A stretch of DNA of 64,000 bases from Poseidonia sp. GTDB taxonomy: Archaea; Thermoplasmatota; Poseidoniia; Poseidoniales; Poseidoniaceae. Positions 2,166 to 12,348 of the stretch are shown piece after piece. A model generated the notes under the pieces. The model was not told where the DNA came from, did not search any database, and saw only the letters and a list, made by a program, of their open reading frames with translations. Numbering within the stretch: position 1 is the stretch's first letter; each line of letters opens with the position of its first letter. A program made the position numbers and the translations under genes. The stretch spans positions 8,558-72,557 of the forward strand of contig JBMZJQ010000002.1 of NCBI GenBank assembly GCA_049617635.1, written 5' to 3'.

Positions 2166-2336
2166 ATGCCCAAAATCTCGTTGGACATGCCGTCTGAACT
2201 GGTGGAGGATCTCAAATTGCATGTTGGAGATGAGAAGAAATTTGTCAGCCTGGCAGATGCCATTCGAACGGCGTGCAGAAAACTGCTGGACCAACTGGAC
2301 GAAATTGACATGATGCACGGTAGGGGGAAGAACTGA
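2166..2336 (+). CDS. Small ribbon-helix-helix (CopG/NikR/Arc-like) DNA-binding protein, 56 aa, absent from the ORF track
   Basis: Translation MPKISLDMPSELVEDLKLHVGDEKKFVSLADAIRTACRKLLDQLDEIDMMHGRGKN shows an RHH pattern: an N-terminal beta-strand KISLDMP, then two helices. The stop TGA overlaps the FolE ATG by 1 nt (TGATG). Confidence 0.6.
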   Translation: MPKISLDMPSELVEDLKLHVGDEKKFVSLADAIRTACRKLLDQLDEIDMMHGRGKN

Positions 2337-2911
2337 TGGTGACCGAAGAAGAAGCACAACAAGCCATACGCACCATCCTTTCGTATATTGAAGGGGCAGG
2401 TGCCAGCAATAGAGAAGGGTTGGAAGACACCCCCCAACGCGTTGTCGAATCCTGGAAGGAATTGCATGCAGGCTATCAAATGGATGCAAGTGAACTTCTT
2501 CAAGCGACCTTCAACGGCGAAGGCTACGATGGCATCGTTTTGTTGCGAAATATCGAATTTACGTCGACCTGTGAACATCACCTCCTTCCTTTCAGCGGGC
2601 GGGGTCACATCGCCTACATTCCGGTGGAGCGTATTGTCGGCATCAGTAAGCTTGCCCGGATTTTGGACCTTCACGCTCGCCGATTGCAAAATCAGGAGCG
2701 AATAACCAAAGGGATTGCCGACGACCTTGAACGGGAACTTAAGCCGCTTGGCGCTGCCGTGATTTTGGAAGCATCGCACGGTTGTATGCAGTGCAGAGGT
2801 GTTGCAAAGCAAGAGGCCGTCATGACCACTTCGGCCATGCGAGGCGTGTTTTTCGATCGGCCCGAGGCTCGAAGCGAACTCATGCAATTGATTCAACAAC
2901 CACCACTGTGA
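2336..2911 (+). CDS. folE: GTP cyclohydrolase I (type IA)
   Basis: Canonical FolE motifs STCEHHLLPF and ASHGCMQCRGV; 191 aa. Confidence 0.9.
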   Translation: MVTEEEAQQAIRTILSYIEGAGASNREGLEDTPQRVVESWKELHAGYQMDASELLQATFNGEGYDGIVLLRNIEFTSTCEHHLLPFSGRGHIAYIPVERIVGISKLARILDLHARRLQNQERITKGIADDLERELKPLGAAVILEASHGCMQCRGVAKQEAVMTTSAMRGVFFDRPEARSELMQLIQQPPL

Positions 2912-2920
2912 GGGAACTGA

Positions 2921-3580
2921 ATGACCAACATGCCATGTGGATTGTCCGGTGATGTCGTCACCGACAACGCAAGTGATTTGGCAGCAGAATACAACATCGT
3001 CGAGATTTTCCACTCCGTTCAAGGTGAAGGTCATCGAAGTGGAATTCCACACGTGTTTATTCGTTTTGGAAAATGCAACCTTCGCTGTGAATGGTGTGAT
3101 ACCAATTTTGACGAATACACGACCATGTCCGCGCTTGACATTCTGGCTCGCGTGATGGAGTTTCCTTGCAGCAACATCATCTTCACCGGGGGTGAGCCCA
3201 TGTTGAACGACTTGTGGCCGCTGAGTCGTCTGCTTCGACGTCGAGGATATCACCTCTCAATTGAATCAAACGGCACCGTTGAAATTCCGGAGGGTTTACT
3301 CGATTGGATTTGCATTTCTCCAAAAGATCAGATGTATCCAAACGTGGCCGTCCGGCAACGCATTGGAAACGAACTCAAATGTGTGTATGTTGGTCAACCA
3401 CTCAGTCTCTACGATGGCCTCATCGAGGGATTTGACCACCTGTATCTCCAGCCGTGCTACGATGAAACACATTCGGTAGAGGAAAACGGACGCATGTTTG
3501 CACTCACTGAATCCGTGGTGAAGGCCAATCCGACGTGGAGGCTCTCGCTTCAAACACACAAATGGATGGGGATATTGTGA
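2921..3580 (+). CDS. queE: 7-carboxy-7-deazaguanine synthase (radical SAM)
   Basis: QueE-type Cys motif CNLRCEWCDT, FHSVQGEG and the GGEP motif. Confidence 0.9.
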   Translation: MTNMPCGLSGDVVTDNASDLAAEYNIVEIFHSVQGEGHRSGIPHVFIRFGKCNLRCEWCDTNFDEYTTMSALDILARVMEFPCSNIIFTGGEPMLNDLWPLSRLLRRRGYHLSIESNGTVEIPEGLLDWICISPKDQMYPNVAVRQRIGNELKCVYVGQPLSLYDGLIEGFDHLYLQPCYDETHSVEENGRMFALTESVVKANPTWRLSLQTHKWMGIL

Positions 3581-4740
3581 CGAGTAAACAGCGAGCCGTC
3601 ATGGCCTTGAGCGGAGGCATGGACTCGAGTTCCTTGTTGTTGCACCTCTTGAGAGAAGGTTACGAAGTAACGGCACTTTCGTTCAATTATGGACAGAAGC
3701 ATGTCGTTGAGTTGCAACGCGCCAGCGATTTGGTCAAGCACTTGGAAGAACACGGATTGCTTGTTCATCACCATGTGATTGACCTCCAAAGTGCGATGGG
3801 ACTTTTTGCAAGCGATTTGCTCGCAACTGGTGGACCCGTCCCTGAAGGCCACTATGAGGAAGACAACATGAAAGCAACCGTCGTTCCCAATCGTAACGCT
3901 ATCTTTTCTTCGTTGTTGTACGGCACTGCTCTTTCAATTGCAACAACGAACGACAGCAAGGTCTGCGTGGTGTTGGGGGTACACAGTGGGGACCACGCCA
4001 TTTACCCGGACTGTCGACCTGAGTTTTATTCAGCCCTCGAACATGCCTTCGCATTAGGGAATTGGGACAGCCATCTCATCTCGTTCGTCTTGCCCTATTT
4101 GGAAATGGACAAAACTTCCATCCTCAAAGACGCTGAGCAGTCCGTGGATCATCTCAAATTGGATTTTGATGCAGTGTTTTCTCGAACCCTCACCTCCTAC
4201 AGTCCGGATGGAGATGGCAAAAGCCACGGGCGAACCGGTTCTGATGTGGAGCGCATTCTTGCTTTCCATGCTCTTGGGCGACAAGACCCCATTGAATATG
4301 TTGAGCCTTGGGTCACCGTCTTGGAGCATGCTTTGAAGGTCGAGCGAGAGCACAAGGATGCAACCTACCGAGAGAAACTCACAGAACTACAATACCACGT
4401 GACACGAGAACAGGGTACGGAACGGGCGTTCACTGGAATCTACTGGGATGAAGAACGCCCTGGAACCTACACGTGCATTTGTTGCTCAACCTTGTTGTTC
4501 ACCTCGAGCATGAAATTTGAATCCGGTTGCGGGTGGCCTTCGTTCCATTCCGAACACAGTGAAGCGAATATCAAACGAATTGAGGACCGAAGTCACGGTA
4601 TGGTTCGTACCGAGGTTCGCTGCGATCGGTGTGACGCTCACCTCGGGCACGTGTTTAACGACGGTCCCGCGGCATACGGAGGCGAGCGCTACTGCATCAA
4701 CTCAGCATCCATGAACTTTCATCTGGAGGAAGACCAATGA
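3535..4740 (+). CDS. queC: 7-cyano-7-deazaguanine synthase QueC fused to a C-terminal methionine-R-sulfoxide reductase (MsrB) domain
   Basis: N-terminal PP-loop ALSGGMDSS, FNYGQKH and HSGDHAIYPDCR match QueC. The C-terminal approximately 130 aa has MsrB motifs: CxxC...CxxC zinc ribbon, GCGWPSF and catalytic RYCINSA. The true start may be the internal ATG at 3562. Confidence 0.85.
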   Translation: MEALASNTQMDGDIVTSKQRAVMALSGGMDSSSLLLHLLREGYEVTALSFNYGQKHVVELQRASDLVKHLEEHGLLVHHHVIDLQSAMGLFASDLLATGGPVPEGHYEEDNMKATVVPNRNAIFSSLLYGTALSIATTNDSKVCVVLGVHSGDHAIYPDCRPEFYSALEHAFALGNWDSHLISFVLPYLEMDKTSILKDAEQSVDHLKLDFDAVFSRTLTSYSPDGDGKSHGRTGSDVERILAFHALGRQDPIEYVEPWVTVLEHALKVEREHKDATYREKLTELQYHVTREQGTERAFTGIYWDEERPGTYTCICCSTLLFTSSMKFESGCGWPSFHSEHSEANIKRIEDRSHGMVRTEVRCDRCDAHLGHVFNDGPAAYGGERYCINSASMNFHLEEDQ

Positions 4741-5192
4741 CCACCACCATCAAGCGTTATGTTGAGACCGATACCGGCCACCGTGTGCCAAATCACAAGT
4801 CCAAATGCAAACATCTGCACGGCCACAGGTACCGGTTTGAAGCTGAAATTGAGGGCGATGTTGTCCAAGAAAGCGGTGTTTCGGATGAAGGGATGCTGAT
4901 GGATTTTGGCGATATCAGCAGCGTCTTGATGGAACATGTACACGATGTCATTGACCATGCATTTGTCCTTTACGAAGGCGATAGCGAAGCCAAACATGCA
5001 TGCGCTGCCATGGGTGAAGGACACCGAACCGTCATCGTACCCTTCATTCCGACCGCTGAGAACCTTGCCAAGTGGGCGTTTGAACAGGTCGAGCCGCACA
5101 TCAAAAGCGTCTATGGAAACCGGTTGCGTTTGGTCGCCATGCATTGCCGAGAGACGCCGAAATCAATCGCCAGTTGGCGACCGTTACGATAA
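4737..5192 (+). CDS. queD: 6-carboxy-5,6,7,8-tetrahydropterin synthase
   Basis: PTPS/QueD motifs (CxxxHGH: KCKHLHGHRY) and typical size. A 4-nt overlap with queC suggests coupling. Confidence 0.9.
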   Translation: MTTTIKRYVETDTGHRVPNHKSKCKHLHGHRYRFEAEIEGDVVQESGVSDEGMLMDFGDISSVLMEHVHDVIDHAFVLYEGDSEAKHACAAMGEGHRTVIVPFIPTAENLAKWAFEQVEPHIKSVYGNRLRLVAMHCRETPKSIASWRPLR

Positions 5193-6017
5193 CCTTCGTC
5201 GATGTTCCTTCTTCCAATTTGGATCGCCCTGACTAAATTGAAGGGCAGTGGTTGCTTCAACAAATGCGCCGATCAAGCGAGTCGATTCCTCATTGCTTGG
5301 CGTTCCTTTCAGGAGGGTTCGTTTCATGGTCTGTTCAACCGATGCCGTACGCTCATCGGGACCAGAGAGAGCATTTGACCATTGTTCGATGGAGGTCAAC
5401 AAGGCAGTTCGTACCGACGGCTCCATGCTCGTTTGAAGGGGAACAATATCAGGAAGGCCCGGATCTTTGCCCTGTTGGGACAGAACACGACTGCGATGAA
5501 TCTCGTACACCACAGCGTTTACTGCGTGGCTGAGATTGGCGATTGGGTAGCCTTCCCACGTTGGAAGCGTGATGAAGTAATCGCATGCAGCCAGATCTTC
5601 CGTGGAGAGTCCTTTGCCTTCCTCGCCGAAGACAATGGCAATTCTGCCACCGGCTTGCTCTTCCCTCTGAATCATGTCCCAAGGATACAAAAAATGACGG
5701 AAGAGGGTTTTGTCACCCACTTCGCGTTTTCCCGATGTACCCAATATTGCGCGACAATCTTCGGCGGCCTCACCAATGCTCGCAAACACGGATGCATCGT
5801 CAAGAACCCGTTGAGCATGCTTCGCACGAGCCCGTGTTTCCTCGTCGTCGGGTGAACACTTTGGATTGACCAATCGGAGGTCATCGAATCCATAATTCAG
5901 CATGGACCGGCAAATGGCACCCAAGTTCCCTGGATGGGTCACACCAACCAGCACGACCGCAACTTGAACCAGCCCGCTCGGTAACGGAATGTCTTGGCGC
6001 TCACCCATCAACCTCAC
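5184..6017 (-). CDS. SpoU/TrmH-family (SPOUT) RNA 2'-O-methyltransferase with C-terminal extension
   Basis: SPOUT motifs VVLVGVTHPGNLGAICRSM and IVFGEEGKGLS. It is the last gene of the r-protein operon. Confidence 0.75.
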   Translation of the reverse strand: MRLMGERQDIPLPSGLVQVAVVLVGVTHPGNLGAICRSMLNYGFDDLRLVNPKCSPDDEETRARAKHAQRVLDDASVFASIGEAAEDCRAILGTSGKREVGDKTLFRHFLYPWDMIQREEQAGGRIAIVFGEEGKGLSTEDLAACDYFITLPTWEGYPIANLSHAVNAVVYEIHRSRVLSQQGKDPGLPDIVPLQTSMEPSVRTALLTSIEQWSNALSGPDERTASVEQTMKRTLLKGTPSNEESTRLIGAFVEATTALQFSQGDPNWKKEHRRRLS

Positions 6018-7828: not shown

Positions 7829-8770
7829 ATGCGTTTTCCTGTTGCAGAAACACCAGCCAATGGGGGGTGGATGCAAGCCTTCTTGAACACCCTTTTGGTG
7901 GGAAGAGCGATGAAGAAAGCCTTGGCGCAGAATCCAAACCTTCTGCGCACGCTCATCGGCCTCTCGCTGACCTTGATTTTCATGTTGTCCTACGCCGTTT
8001 ATGGAGCAACGGTATCACCTTCGGTTTACATCTATCAAACAGAGGCAACGGTCAGCGACTACAATGCCTCGACCGCCAGCGAATCCGTTGAGCGAAGTTA
8101 TGATGCCGAAGAAAACACAACCACATGGGCATGGCAAATTGTGGCCAACGACGCCAACCTCACATGGGTGAATGTGACAGCGACCGATCTTTCATCGGGT
8201 GCAGTGTTGAGAGTCACCAATGTTGCAAAACTCTACAGCCACGAATTGCTCGGAACCACCTACGACCTTAGCGACCCACTCAAACAGGACTTTTCGTGTG
8301 CAGAAGCGTGTGCCCATGCAACCAGTCACGAGCGTGTTTCTGAAGACGGTAGCCCCATCCAATTCCACGCCCTCACCTCGGTCGACCCGGCACGCAGGTC
8401 AAACGGCAGCGTGTTCGCTCAATCACTCGAAGAGGCTGAAAACAAAGCACGAGCAGCCATCGATTACACCCACAGTCCGTCCATTGTTCGCGTCGAAATC
8501 ATTGAACAGGGCAACCGAACCACCCAACCCGGTCTTGAAGCTGAAACGGTGAACGAGGCGTTTGCTACCGTCAGCGTTTTTTCAGTCGATGCGGCTACTG
8601 AATTCTTGTGGGCACTCGCTGCCGTCGTGGGTTGTTTTTCCATGGTCCTCATCCCATCGTTTACCGTGTACTTCGCTGCCCGGGCGAAAGAAAAGCGGGA
8701 CGAAGCAAAATTACAACAGGCCAATCAAGACGTTGAAAACTGGCTGGATTCTGAGGAGAAAAAATCCTAA
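7829..8770 (+). CDS. Hypothetical membrane-anchored extracellular protein (N-terminal signal anchor, C-terminal TM)
   Basis: Hydrophobic N-terminal segment LIGLSLTLIFML and a C-terminal TM followed by a charged tail. Several N-glycosylation sequons. The start could instead be at MKKALAQ (7910). Confidence 0.5.
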   Translation: MRFPVAETPANGGWMQAFLNTLLVGRAMKKALAQNPNLLRTLIGLSLTLIFMLSYAVYGATVSPSVYIYQTEATVSDYNASTASESVERSYDAEENTTTWAWQIVANDANLTWVNVTATDLSSGAVLRVTNVAKLYSHELLGTTYDLSDPLKQDFSCAEACAHATSHERVSEDGSPIQFHALTSVDPARRSNGSVFAQSLEEAENKARAAIDYTHSPSIVRVEIIEQGNRTTQPGLEAETVNEAFATVSVFSVDAATEFLWALAAVVGCFSMVLIPSFTVYFAARAKEKRDEAKLQQANQDVENWLDSEEKKS

Positions 8771-8823: not shown

Positions 8824-11800
8824 ATGCTGGTTCGACGGAGTCTGGGTCTCGTGGTCTTGTTGTTGGCCATGTCCTTTTCTCATCCAGTCAACACCTTGTC
8901 TGACCTTGCCCAACCGCACACCAGTCCGAGCAATCCAACGGGTGTTGATGTGACGGTCACAGGTGTGGATGTTGCTTACACCAGCAATTCTGGCTCAGCG
9001 CTGTACAAGATGTTTTCATCAAACCATCCCATTCTCGGTTTCAATCGACCGGCAAATCTCTACGTCATTGACGGCATGCTCAACGTGTCATCGACGCTCA
9101 CCATCACCGTTGAAAACATTGGCGTTGCCGCTTCCGGCGTTATTGACATCAATGTGCTCCTTCTTCACAACGAATACTCCTACTTTGAATTCGTGAACAC
9201 CAGTGTGCAGATGGCACAGTTGTTTGGCGGAGATAGCAACACCGCAAGCGTCGCCATCACCCCGAGTTATGCCGGCAACCACACCCTCGTGGTCCGTGCA
9301 ACTTCGGCTGTATCCGATGATGTTCCGAGCAACGATGCATTGAGCGAAGGATTCACGGTTGGCTTTGATTACTTCAACTGCGACTCGAGTAGCGCATGGA
9401 CGTTTGGTTCGGGATGGAGCATGAGCACTGATACATCTCTATCTCAGGGGAGAAGTTGCCATGTAGGTAACGGTCAATCATCAACCTACAGCAACAACAT
9501 GATTGCAAGTCTAACCACGCCTGTCATGGATCTATCAGATGCCATCAGCAGTCCATTGCGAACAAACGGATTGAGTTTCTACTACACCGGAAGTTCAGCT
9601 GCCAATGACAAACTCACCATGTACGGAAGAAATGCCTTTGGCGCCTGGAGTGAAATCGGGTCGTTCAGCGGAACGATTGATCAAGTCTTTACAGACGGTG
9701 CGAATTGGAACACGTTTAGCATCAATGACAAGGGCGCAACCTCCCCGTTGGTCCCCGTCAGTTCAGATTTGTTCCACAGCACGTCGCAATTCAAGTACGA
9801 GTTTACATCCGACGCAAGCGGAACCGATATCGGGTTTTACATCGATGACATCGTCCTCGTCTACGACCAAAAGGTCCGGCCCATGGAATACAATGTCTCT
9901 GCGCAAGGCATCTCAACCAACGGCGCTGTTCCAGGAGAGTGGGGGAGCATCACACTGAAGGTCGTCAACACAGGAAACATTACCGAGACGTATCTCCCAG
10001 AGTTGACGGGTTTACCTGCTAGTTGGAACGCCTATTACACCAGACCGTCGGGAACAAGTTTCGATCCTCTTCAAGGGTTGGTCGTGTCACCGGGTGCACC
10101 GCAAGAATTCAACATCATGATTCAACCAGACCCGAACGCCACCGTTGGTTTTCAACAGATGTCGCTCAAGGTAACTTCAGCATCCTATGCCAGCGTTTCT
10201 GACACCCTCCCGGTTCAGTTCTTGGTCAAGGCTGACCGAATCCCTGTCATCCTGACGCCCCCTGTACGACCGAGTTGCCCACCGTCCTACACCTGTACGT
10301 TTGAGGTCGAGATGACCAACGAAGGCGGAGCAACCGATGTCTTCGACCTCGGCGTGGATACAACGAACGTTCCAAACGATTGGAGCATCGCTCTTGCATG
10401 GACGCAGGCTTCGTCGGTCCTGATACGACCCGGCGAGACCGTTGCAGCCCTGTTCACGTTGACGCCACCGTCAGGCGTGGCCCCCGACACTGTTGTCGGA
10501 TTTGATTTGACGCTGACTGCACAAAACGACTCCAGTCGAGTTGACATCAAGGAAATTGAAGTCTCAGCATCCATGATTTCAGACGCAGCCGTTGACATGG
10601 TTGAATCGCTGAAAACCGCAAGAATGATGGTTGATGCCGGTGAACTCATCACCCTCGAATACGAGATTTGGAACAACGCAACCCGTCAGGACATTTTCTC
10701 AATGCGAGTTCAAGTGGATGATCCAGGCAATTGGGTCGTCCATCAACCCACCCGTCCTAACGCCGTGTTGAACGCCGGTACATCCACGACATTCAAAATC
10801 ACCGTTGAGGTTCCAGCGACGGCCCAAGCAAACGACCGCGGACCTGTTATTACGCCCATCATTGAATCAGAGCGAAGTCGAATGGTCATTGAAGGCGACC
10901 CCTACGATGGATTGCGCGTGAGGACAACACACGACATCCAATTATCGCTCATCGATGCACCGACAAAACTAACGCCCGGCGTAGCCAACGAAATCCTTCT
11001 GCAGGTAAGCAACAACGGAAACGGACCATCAACCGTTATCGTTCAAGCCAACGATCTTCCAGAGACCTGGACGTGGTGGTTGACCGAAGACGGGGAAAAC
11101 CTCTCCGGGCCAATCTCCTTGACGGTATCTTACGACTTAGAACATGAGGCCAATATCTCCCTCTGGTTGCTCTTGCCGATGACGGAATCGGCCGGCGAAT
11201 TGCATACAATCGCTATATCAAGCCACCATGAAGGCGAAGGAGATGATGCCAATCCGGCAGACAACGCTGTTGAATTTGTTGCCACGACCGGAGCCGTGCG
11301 CCTTCCATCGGTGGCCTTGACGGACCAAAGTACCTCCACGATGGCAGGTGAATCGATGTTCGCTGAAGCGGTTGTCACCAATGCAGGAAACGCCTTCGAA
11401 AACCGACTGTCCGTCACTGCCAGCGTTTCATCATCGCCTCCTGTGGCCGGACTCATCGCCTTTTTCACCGTTGATGGTGGTGACAAGACAGTTGGTGCGC
11501 CTGCAACTCTTGCCGTCCCTCCCGGTGGTGTTCAAGCGCTCAGACTCGAGGTCTTGATTCCAGATGATGCTCCCCTCAACACACGCTTTGTCCTCCGGTT
11601 TGACTTCGATGGAGCCGTTGACGAAAACGGTCTACCGATGGAAATGATGGTGGAAGCCATGGTGCTGTTGGACCAGCGAAGAAGCATGGACGTTGATGTT
11701 GCGCGAGCCACCAACGATACCGTGGCCTACGGAACGACTGCTCGTGTTTGGGTGAACCACTCATCCACGTCGACCATGGCAGAGTCATACACATTAAGAG

Positions 11801-12348
11801 CCCAAGGTGAAGATGGGTGGCAACTCACCTGCGACAAACGTCTTCTCAACGAAACAGGTTCAACGTACGAGTTGCCCCCGGGCCATATCACTCCACAATT
11901 CAAACAACATTCATGCGAGGTTCTCCGCCTCAGTGGACCACTCACCGGTACGGTGGTGTACACCCTCGCAAATGCGGATGGGTCTCTCTACCAAACCCAC
12001 GAATTATCGTTCACGTTCGCATCTCCACCTGCTGATGAAAGCATGTCGACCACGATGCTGATTGGAGGTGGCGCAGGCCTTCTCGTCTTTGTAGTGACAC
12101 TTCTGATGCTGATGGGCCGGCGCCCTTCCGATAAAGAGAACCCGTTTGAGTCAGAACCGGTTCAATCAGCAGGGCCACCGATCTCCTCGGCACAATCAAC
12201 CCATGCAGACCCACAGGCCGAAGAAGTCGTTTCACAACCACACGCTCAGGCAACAGGGCCCCCTCTCCCACCTGAAGGATTGCCCCCCGGCTGGAGTGAG
12301 GAACAGTGGGCATATTATGGGCAGCAATACCTTGATGGAACGCTTTGA
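8824..12348 (+). CDS. Giant (1174 aa) cell-surface glycoprotein-like protein; S-layer or surface-adhesin candidate
   Basis: N-terminal signal peptide, a very long Thr/Ser/Val/Asn-rich beta-type sequence with dozens of NxS/T sequons, a single C-terminal TM (LLVFVVTLLMLM), and a Pro-rich cytoplasmic tail. Confidence 0.7.
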   Translation: MLVRRSLGLVVLLLAMSFSHPVNTLSDLAQPHTSPSNPTGVDVTVTGVDVAYTSNSGSALYKMFSSNHPILGFNRPANLYVIDGMLNVSSTLTITVENIGVAASGVIDINVLLLHNEYSYFEFVNTSVQMAQLFGGDSNTASVAITPSYAGNHTLVVRATSAVSDDVPSNDALSEGFTVGFDYFNCDSSSAWTFGSGWSMSTDTSLSQGRSCHVGNGQSSTYSNNMIASLTTPVMDLSDAISSPLRTNGLSFYYTGSSAANDKLTMYGRNAFGAWSEIGSFSGTIDQVFTDGANWNTFSINDKGATSPLVPVSSDLFHSTSQFKYEFTSDASGTDIGFYIDDIVLVYDQKVRPMEYNVSAQGISTNGAVPGEWGSITLKVVNTGNITETYLPELTGLPASWNAYYTRPSGTSFDPLQGLVVSPGAPQEFNIMIQPDPNATVGFQQMSLKVTSASYASVSDTLPVQFLVKADRIPVILTPPVRPSCPPSYTCTFEVEMTNEGGATDVFDLGVDTTNVPNDWSIALAWTQASSVLIRPGETVAALFTLTPPSGVAPDTVVGFDLTLTAQNDSSRVDIKEIEVSASMISDAAVDMVESLKTARMMVDAGELITLEYEIWNNATRQDIFSMRVQVDDPGNWVVHQPTRPNAVLNAGTSTTFKITVEVPATAQANDRGPVITPIIESERSRMVIEGDPYDGLRVRTTHDIQLSLIDAPTKLTPGVANEILLQVSNNGNGPSTVIVQANDLPETWTWWLTEDGENLSGPISLTVSYDLEHEANISLWLLLPMTESAGELHTIAISSHHEGEGDDANPADNAVEFVATTGAVRLPSVALTDQSTSTMAGESMFAEAVVTNAGNAFENRLSVTASVSSSPPVAGLIAFFTVDGGDKTVGAPATLAVPPGGVQALRLEVLIPDDAPLNTRFVLRFDFDGAVDENGLPMEMMVEAMVLLDQRRSMDVDVARATNDTVAYGTTARVWVNHSSTSTMAESYTLRAQGEDGWQLTCDKRLLNETGSTYELPPGHITPQFKQHSCEVLRLSGPLTGTVVYTLANADGSLYQTHELSFTFASPPADESMSTTMLIGGGAGLLVFVVTLLMLMGRRPSDKENPFESEPVQSAGPPISSAQSTHADPQAEEVVSQPHAQATGPPLPPEGLPPGWSEEQWAYYGQQYLDGTL

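Follow-up and report, generated by a model that had tools for sequence, protein, structure and literature searches.

In a 64,000-nucleotide stretch of DNA from Poseidonia sp. (GenBank assembly GCA_049617635.1, contig JBMZJQ010000002.1, positions 8,558 to 72,557 of the forward strand; this whole stretch is referred to below as the window), the third gene of a compact folE-queE-queC::msrB-queD operon encodes a QueC domain joined in frame to a methionine sulfoxide reductase (MsrB) domain. We read this protein as a fusion of ordinary operon neighbours that carries two independent activities on one chain, and assign this reading a probability of about 0.65. The N-terminal domain would be an ATP-dependent synthase that converts 7-carboxy-7-deazaguanine (CDG) to 7-cyano-7-deazaguanine (preQ0) for archaeosine, and the C-terminal domain a methionine-R-sulfoxide reductase of the zinc-containing, two-cysteine type, recycled by thioredoxin. 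The QueC domain lacks the four cysteines that bind zinc in canonical QueC. Judged from the alignments and tree described below, this loss dates back to the ancestor of a whole QueC clade and is unrelated to the fusion.

The occurrence of the fusion was surveyed by a search across 5.8 billion proteins, which returned the identical protein (P0001, 100%) together with 119 more fused clusters, 70-85% identical, on independent contigs of up to 902 kb. These came from ENA, JGI, NCBI and Logan assemblies, and the named ones were labelled Poseidonia sp. or Poseidoniales; by this distribution, the fusion is confined to one archaeal order, Poseidoniales (Marine Group II). An in-frame fusion had been proposed earlier from a sequence-only reading of this DNA, and the recurrence of the same arrangement bears it out, as do Pfam matches of the window protein to both QueC (PF06508, aa 20-245, E 7.3e-40, 137 bits against a cutoff of 22) and SelR/MsrB (PF01641, aa 282-396, E 1.7e-50, 170 bits against a cutoff of 24.9). 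No publication was found that describes a QueC-MsrB fusion, in agreement with the same reading, or a Cys-less canonical QueC. Similarly, nothing relevant was found in the literature on a zinc-independent QueC or on Poseidoniales MsrB or archaeosine, and the 2026 survey of the QueC family (PMC13329287) had no PF01641, SelR, MsrB or Poseidoni entries in its supplement. The fusion proteins are abundant in public databases, where their names give one half only, 'MsrB' at NCBI and 'QueC' at JGI. The NCBI name hides QueC probably because the NCBIfam QueC equivalog model, TIGR00364, scores under its cutoff while the MsrB model passes.

The window QueC domain was aligned with the 150 nearest representatives of 50%-identity clusters. 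Apart from the four Cys, every residue conserved in at least 85% of the four-Cys relatives was kept in the window domain: SGGxDS, YGQxHxxE, VPNRN, H-x-G-D-H, YPDC-R, the conserved Lys, the Tyr right after ligand 1 (codon at 4198-4200), and E-R..AF after the last ligand. The sequence-only claim that the PP-loop and core motifs are retained thus held in the alignment. The signature motifs of canonical QueC have been set out in the 2026 family survey, and mutagenesis has identified Y35, R99 and Y131 as essential in QueC, together with Y189, which lies within the zinc region (PMC13329287). In the window protein, K184 and Y213 (numbered from the ATG at 3562) correspond to E. coli K165 and Y189; both of these residues, and YGQKHVVE, VPNRN and YPDC, are each at least 94% conserved across the Cys-less clade.

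At the ligand columns themselves, which are Cys in all 38 full-length four-Cys relatives (whose zinc region reads T-C-Y ... C-G-x-C-G-x-C-x-E-R), the window protein carries S (4195-97), H (4225-27), T (4234-36) and D (4243-45). The C-x8-C-x2-C-x2-C zinc motif of canonical QueC is accordingly absent from it, as had been noticed from the sequence alone. The former zinc segment is nearly invariant in the fusions, where it reads R-T-x-T-S-Y-x-P-D-x-x-G-x-S-x-G-x-T-G-S-D-x-E-R with flanks that are invariant in 53 aligned fusion proteins. Because every other canonical motif is retained, the Cys-less QueC domain very likely still produces preQ0; we infer this activity from motif conservation and operon context.

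The Cys-less motif extends well beyond the fused proteins. All Poseidoniales QueCs in our genome scan (see below) were Cys-less, with msrB fused, separate or absent. Unfused Cys-less QueCs of ~255-285 aa were also found in marine Pirellulaceae, Planctomycetaceae and other Planctomycetota (10 full-length loci), as well as in one SAR406 genome, one Flavobacteriales metagenome-assembled genome (MAG) and one Thiotrichales genome. In Tara and other marine assemblies, two bacterial Cys-less queC genes lie in ordinary chromosomal contexts, with queD, leuS and TonB/T9SS genes as neighbours. Among the best-matching IMG/VR viral contigs with a readable motif, 77 of 79 were Cys-less, most of them of the type T-S-Y...S-D-Y-K-S-A-S-S-V-E-R; folE, queD or queE was present within 4 kb in 46 of the 80 best viral loci, and msrB was found near queC in none of these 80. 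The only cultured phage with such a gene was the Baltic Flavobacterium phage immuto (vB_FspM_immuto_3-5A, MW353176.1; L161 3914-4795), whose QueC reads TSY...SDYKSASSVER. The immuto gene has no annotated folE, queD or queE within 4 kb, and a thioredoxin-domain gene and tRNA genes are nearby.

The motif was readable in 238 of 239 protein-search hits, and all 238 had [ST]-x-[TS]-D at the ligand columns. The second column was occupied by S, H, D, N, P, E, K, Y, A, Q, R or T, or once by C, and is too variable to be a metal ligand. Across the clade, C-x8-C-x2-C-x2-C is replaced by [ST]...x-G-x-[TS]-G-x-[DS]. In a neighbour-joining tree of the QueC domain (rough, without support values), the Cys-less sequences formed one clade whose nearest neighbours were four-Cys proteins (P0124, L046) belonging to the same long subfamily, and the fused and unfused Poseidoniales sequences were interleaved. 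The possibility raised at the outset, that the Cys might be routinely absent from archaeal QueC, was therefore realized for the whole of this Cys-less QueC lineage, with archaeal coverage consisting of Poseidoniales.

Several relatives with unusual features were noted during these searches. Six proteins (P0218, P0227, P0233, P0238, P0242 and P0265) have three Cys and an Asp at the fourth ligand (C-G-x-C-[GS]-[STA]-D-x-E-R) and may be intermediates between zinc and zinc-less forms, or may have Cys3Asp zinc sites. Inteins (PF14890, in some cases with LAGLIDADG) interrupt four further close relatives (P0123, P0126, P0140 and P0144), Cys-less as well as four-Cys, after about residue 145-150, and P0130 has an N-terminal HNH endonuclease domain. 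These inteins and the HNH domain suggest that this QueC subfamily has been carried by phages or mobile elements.

The distribution of the clade over ocean plankton and aquatic phages is suggestive of zinc economy. As the whole explanation, zinc economy was rejected: FolE keeps its CEHH and HGCM zinc-ligand motifs (read from the translation), QueD keeps the CxxxHGH zinc/catalytic motif (as defined in PMC10516641), and MsrB keeps two CxxC pairs. Since these proteins of the same operon retain their ligands, any zinc saving would be confined to one structural site.

The MsrB half is, by profile score and alignment, a full family member with a complete domain. It is over the TIGR00357 cutoff, is 40-56% identical to solved MsrB structures, and has both CxxC pairs (invariant in 53 aligned fusion proteins), the resolving Cys and the catalytic Cys of RYCINS, so that its description from sequence alone as complete, with both CxxC pairs and the catalytic RYC, was upheld.

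To place the fusion in its genomic setting, one genome per GTDB species was scanned, and the window operon proteins were then compared by tblastn with 80 loci, 39 of which were informative Poseidoniales loci. The order common to Poseidoniales was folE-queE-queC-msrB-queD with a convergent spoU, and msrB between queC and queD spans both Poseidoniaceae and Thalassarchaeaceae. queC and msrB were in one frame at 23 of the 39 loci and were separate neighbours at 12; at the remaining four (L001, L004, L006 and L013) queC was followed directly by queD in an operon without msrB. Where the junction of the separate genes was inspected (n = 5), the queC stop overlapped the msrB ATG by 4 nucleotides (ATGA, four loci) or 8 nucleotides (one locus).

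The fused loci have two types of junction. In the long class, found at 11 genome loci and in the window protein, exactly 30 residues separate DPxxY of QueC from QYxVTR of MsrB; L007, a variant of the long class, is outside the 30-residue count. In the short class (11 loci) the terminal QueC helix runs straight into MsrB, ALKAQLRHYVMKENGTE, and the MsrB domain is more divergent. Fused junctions lack ~10-16 codons around the stop and start of the separate-gene loci, and the length is fixed within each type. The simplest history consistent with these arrangements would have an msrB gene placed between queC and queD in the ancestor, at least two losses of the overlapping stop/start junction that gave a single frame, and occasional loss of msrB from the operon. 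The 4-nucleotide overlaps between consecutive genes (GTGA at queE/queC and ATGA at queC::msrB/queD in the window, ATGA also at queC/msrB where these are separate) are consistent with translational coupling and with easy fusion. On the same reading to which we gave about two chances in three, the fusion would be an ordinary joining of operon neighbours.

Two of the loci have peculiarities of their own. In the Poseidoniaceae MAG FRAM_WSC20 (L009, 5378-5986), the queE match is broken into four short stretches upstream of a fusion gene that is itself intact, a pattern suggesting either assembly-error frameshifts or a decaying queE. A contig labelled Phycisphaerae bacterium MED703 (L029, NZFX01000056.1) carries a Poseidoniales-type folE-queE-queC::msrB-queD-spoU with a short junction; it probably came from an archaeon and was mis-binned into a bacterial MAG.

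In an AlphaFold2 model of the fusion, the Cys-free C-terminal subdomain of QueC (residues 201-240) had predicted local distance difference test scores (pLDDT) of 75-94, and a long helix at residues 250-272 (pLDDT about 88-95), also present in unfused relatives, led into MsrB. A Foldseek search against the PDB matched QueC (to 3BL5 and 2PG3, both with probability 1.0) and MsrB separately, and no entry in this search covered both domains. A polar, hydrogen-bonded Ser/Thr/Asp turn may hold the C-terminal subdomain of QueC instead of a metal, as the freedom of the second ligand column to vary suggests. The two domains would act independently, the fusion guaranteeing only co-expression and 1:1 stoichiometry. 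In this reading, the enzymatic activities, the absence of metal from the QueC domain and the independence of the domains are inferred.

A number of points weigh against this interpretation. The mean pLDDT of the model was 76, and the QueC domain scored 134.1 bits against TIGR00364, under the cutoff of 150.3. Zinc has been reported to be required for QueC function, its motif being treated as a hallmark in the family survey (PMC13329287) and in the paper on the QatC structure (PMC13639016) and being kept even in the defence paralogues QatC and Cap9 (PMC13329287, PMC13639016), and mutating the four Cys of the homologue QatC severely lowered its anti-phage activity (PMC13639016). Finally, the conservation of msrB in the operon of both families and the existence of two junctions could mean a functional link rather than neutral compaction.

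There is also a broader alternative, in which a functional metal-free lineage of canonical QueC is spread through ocean plankton (Marine Group II, Planctomycetota, SAR406) and phages, possibly saving zinc in zinc-poor surface water, and the repeated fusion to MsrB reflects a real partnership such as oxidative protection of the pathway. We entertain it tentatively, at odds well short of even. Somewhat less probable again is the specific proposal that MsrB is tied to preQ0/archaeosine synthesis, for instance by repairing oxidized Met of QueC or its partners in a sun-lit, oxidizing habitat, so that proximity of the two was selected. The candidate targets would be the PP-loop Met in SGGMDS and the conserved Met before VVPNRN. 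The gene order speaks for such coupling, msrB lying between queC and queD at 35 of the 39 informative loci in both families, as do the two distinct junctions, which suggest recurrent fusion. Four loci nevertheless have the operon without msrB, and the bacterial and viral Cys-less queC genes were never accompanied by a nearby msrB at the loci examined. The Met in SGGMDS and at position 103 are conserved in 97% of the clade, but they are kept equally in QueCs that have no MsrB partner. The MsrB domain is moreover generic and complete, at 40-56% identity to stand-alone enzymes, and overlapping genes of a compact genome fuse easily without selection. The suggestion made from sequence alone of a bifunctional enzyme is plausible in a limited sense, two intact enzymes having been joined through fusion of adjacent operon genes; a mechanistic link between tRNA modification and methionine repair would be a further conjecture.

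It is also conceivable, but improbable, that the zinc-less clade has changed its function and stops at the amide (ADG), or uses another substrate. A QueC homologue, QueC*, has been proposed as the ADG synthase of some phages (PMC10516641), phage sequences dominate the clade, and the described requirement of QueC for zinc (PMC13329287) and the low TIGR00364 score would fit such a change. Against it, the substrate and ATP motifs of canonical QueC are all kept, and the gene holds the place of the queC-family member within a folE-queE-queC-queD operon, in an archaeal order whose archaeosine depends on preQ0. In marine bacteria, the gene adjoins queD and leuS as a chromosomal housekeeping gene.

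The sequence-only reading had further proposed that the MsrB zinc ribbon packs at the former QueC zinc site and takes over its structural role. It has in its favour solely the co-occurrence, in this one protein, of a lost zinc site with a partner that contains zinc, and the wider comparison leaves it very little room. Since unfused QueCs share the Cys-less motif, the ribbon is no stand-in for the lost site: the identical motif occurs without a fused MsrB in 12 + 4 Poseidoniales species (msrB separate or absent), in Planctomycetota and SAR406 bacteria, in the 77 of 79 viral contigs mentioned above and in phage immuto. The segment that took the place of the zinc site is strongly conserved in its own right and was modelled with confidence, and the long helix, which unfused relatives also have, lies between the domains.

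A sequencing or assembly frameshift that falsely joins queC and msrB, a check named by the same reading and imaginable insofar as related genomes overlap the two genes by 4 nucleotides in different frames and a single-base error could alter a call, is excluded for practical purposes by more than 120 non-identical fused clusters, which derive from numerous samples and assemblers, contigs of 0.1-0.9 Mb among them, and by junctions that are no simple read-through, with ~10-16 codons gone and a fixed length per type.

The coordinates of the window features are collected in Table 1. The queE gene, whose placement is identical across all complete Poseidoniales loci, had TIGR04508 (queE_Cx14CxxC) as its best NCBIfam match (E 1.3e-37, under cutoff). 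The fusion reading frame can be opened at GTG 3535, ATG 3562 or GTG 3577. Because the queE stop (3578-3580) sits within a GTGA overlap with the last of these (3577-3580), the true start is probably ATG 3562 or GTG 3577 rather than GTG 3535. At the other end, the queD start and the fusion stop overlap as ATGA (4737-4740). The convergent SpoU-family gene occupies this place at most Poseidoniales loci and is a conserved neighbour of the operon, whose first gene is folE.

Table 1. Features of the preQ0 operon and the queC::msrB fusion gene in the window (window positions).
Feature	Position	Strand	Basis or remark
folE (GTP cyclohydrolase I)	2336..2911	+	Pfam PF01227, E 6e-63; NCBIfam FolE, 223 bits vs cutoff 174
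queE (radical-SAM 7-carboxy-7-deazaguanine synthase)	2921..3580	+	Pfam Radical_SAM, E 6e-10
queC::msrB fusion open reading frame	3535..4740	+	401 aa from GTG 3535
QueC domain	3592..4350	+	Rossmann core, C-terminal helical subdomain and clade-specific C-terminal helix DPIEYVEPWVTVLEHALKVE
PP-loop SGGMDS (ATP pyrophosphatase motif)	3610..3627	+	column kept in 97-100% of Cys-containing and Cys-less relatives alike
YGQKHVVE (canonical YxQxHxxE)	3688..3711	+	alignment; motif defined in PMC13329287
VPNRN (canonical VPxRN)	3883..3897	+	alignment; PMC13329287
YPDC (canonical QueC substrate-pocket motif)	4003..4014	+	alignment; PMC13329287
Former zinc-binding segment TLTSYSPDGDGKSHGRTGSDVER	4186..4254	+	alignment with four-Cys relatives
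MsrB (SelR) domain	4354..4722	+	TIGR00357, 177.7 bits vs cutoff 113
CxxC pair 1, CICC	4474-4485	+	invariant in 53 aligned fusion proteins
Resolving Cys in GCGWPSF	4528-4530	+	alignment to solved MsrB structures
CxxC pair 2, CDRC	4621-4632	+	invariant in 53 aligned fusion proteins
Catalytic Cys of RYCINS	4693-4695	+	alignment to solved MsrB structures
queD (6-carboxytetrahydropterin synthase)	4737..5192	+	Pfam PTPS, E 5.6e-26
SpoU-family RNA methyltransferase gene, convergent	5184..6017	-	Pfam PF00588, E 2e-25

Further along the window, a 1174-aa Thr/Ser/Val-rich open reading frame (8824-12348, + strand) and a 313-aa one (7829-8770, + strand), both with hydrophobic termini, resemble the secreted or surface proteins that are typical of Marine Group II.

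More noteworthy than the fusion is the large, undescribed clade of otherwise canonical QueC without the zinc motif. With all catalytic motifs and no zinc Cys, this natural clade offers a ready-made test of the purpose of the zinc site, and, if the lineage is both functional and metal-free, the 'hallmark' site would be dispensable for preQ0 synthesis. Reconstruction of the archaeosine pathway in an archaeal group that ranks among the most abundant of the surface ocean may be wrong, given the inconsistent names and the failure of the QueC equivalog model to pick up these proteins. Within one order, the operon has no msrB, a separate msrB that overlaps queC, or one of two fusion types; this series provides a clean example of operon neighbours becoming multidomain proteins, and it cautions against inferring function from such fusions.

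Compared with canonical QueC, the window domain shares the fold, SGGxDS, YxQxHxxE, VPxRN, YPDC, the conserved Lys and the essential Tyr of the C-terminal subdomain, and its operon partners queD and queE are present in the window and in all complete Poseidoniales loci. It differs in having S/x/T/D in place of the four zinc Cys and an extra C-terminal helix (DPxxY...W..VL..A), in scoring under the NCBIfam equivalog cutoff, and in being fused to MsrB. By most defining features of its sequence, the N-terminal domain is a canonical QueC, the exceptions being the absent zinc motif and one curated threshold that it does not reach. The C-terminal domain resembles zinc-containing MsrB (E. coli 6SYM, Methanothermobacter 2K8D) in its two CxxC pairs, GCGWPSF and RYCINS, at 50-56% identity, but it is placed on the C-terminus of QueC within a preQ0 operon, whereas MsrB elsewhere stands alone or is fused to MsrA/thioredoxin as in PilB.

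Fusion of a QueC domain to another enzyme in a 7-deazaguanine context has a precedent in Gat-QueC of some archaea and phage 9g (PMC5699537, PMC10516641). The partner there, a GATase at the N-terminus, feeds into the same chemistry; in the window protein, in which Pfam and NCBIfam searches found no GATase domain, the partner is a C-terminal and functionally unrelated MsrB. A form without zinc ligands at a zinc-requiring step of the same pathway family is likewise known from FolE2/GTP cyclohydrolase IB (cited in PMC5699537), and queC has been reported in a Zur regulon (PMC6103462). FolE2 is a non-homologous or paralogous backup switched on by Zur, whereas here the orthologous QueC itself has lost the zinc site, and has done so in the only QueC-family gene of the operon, while FolE, QueD and MsrB keep their zinc ligands.

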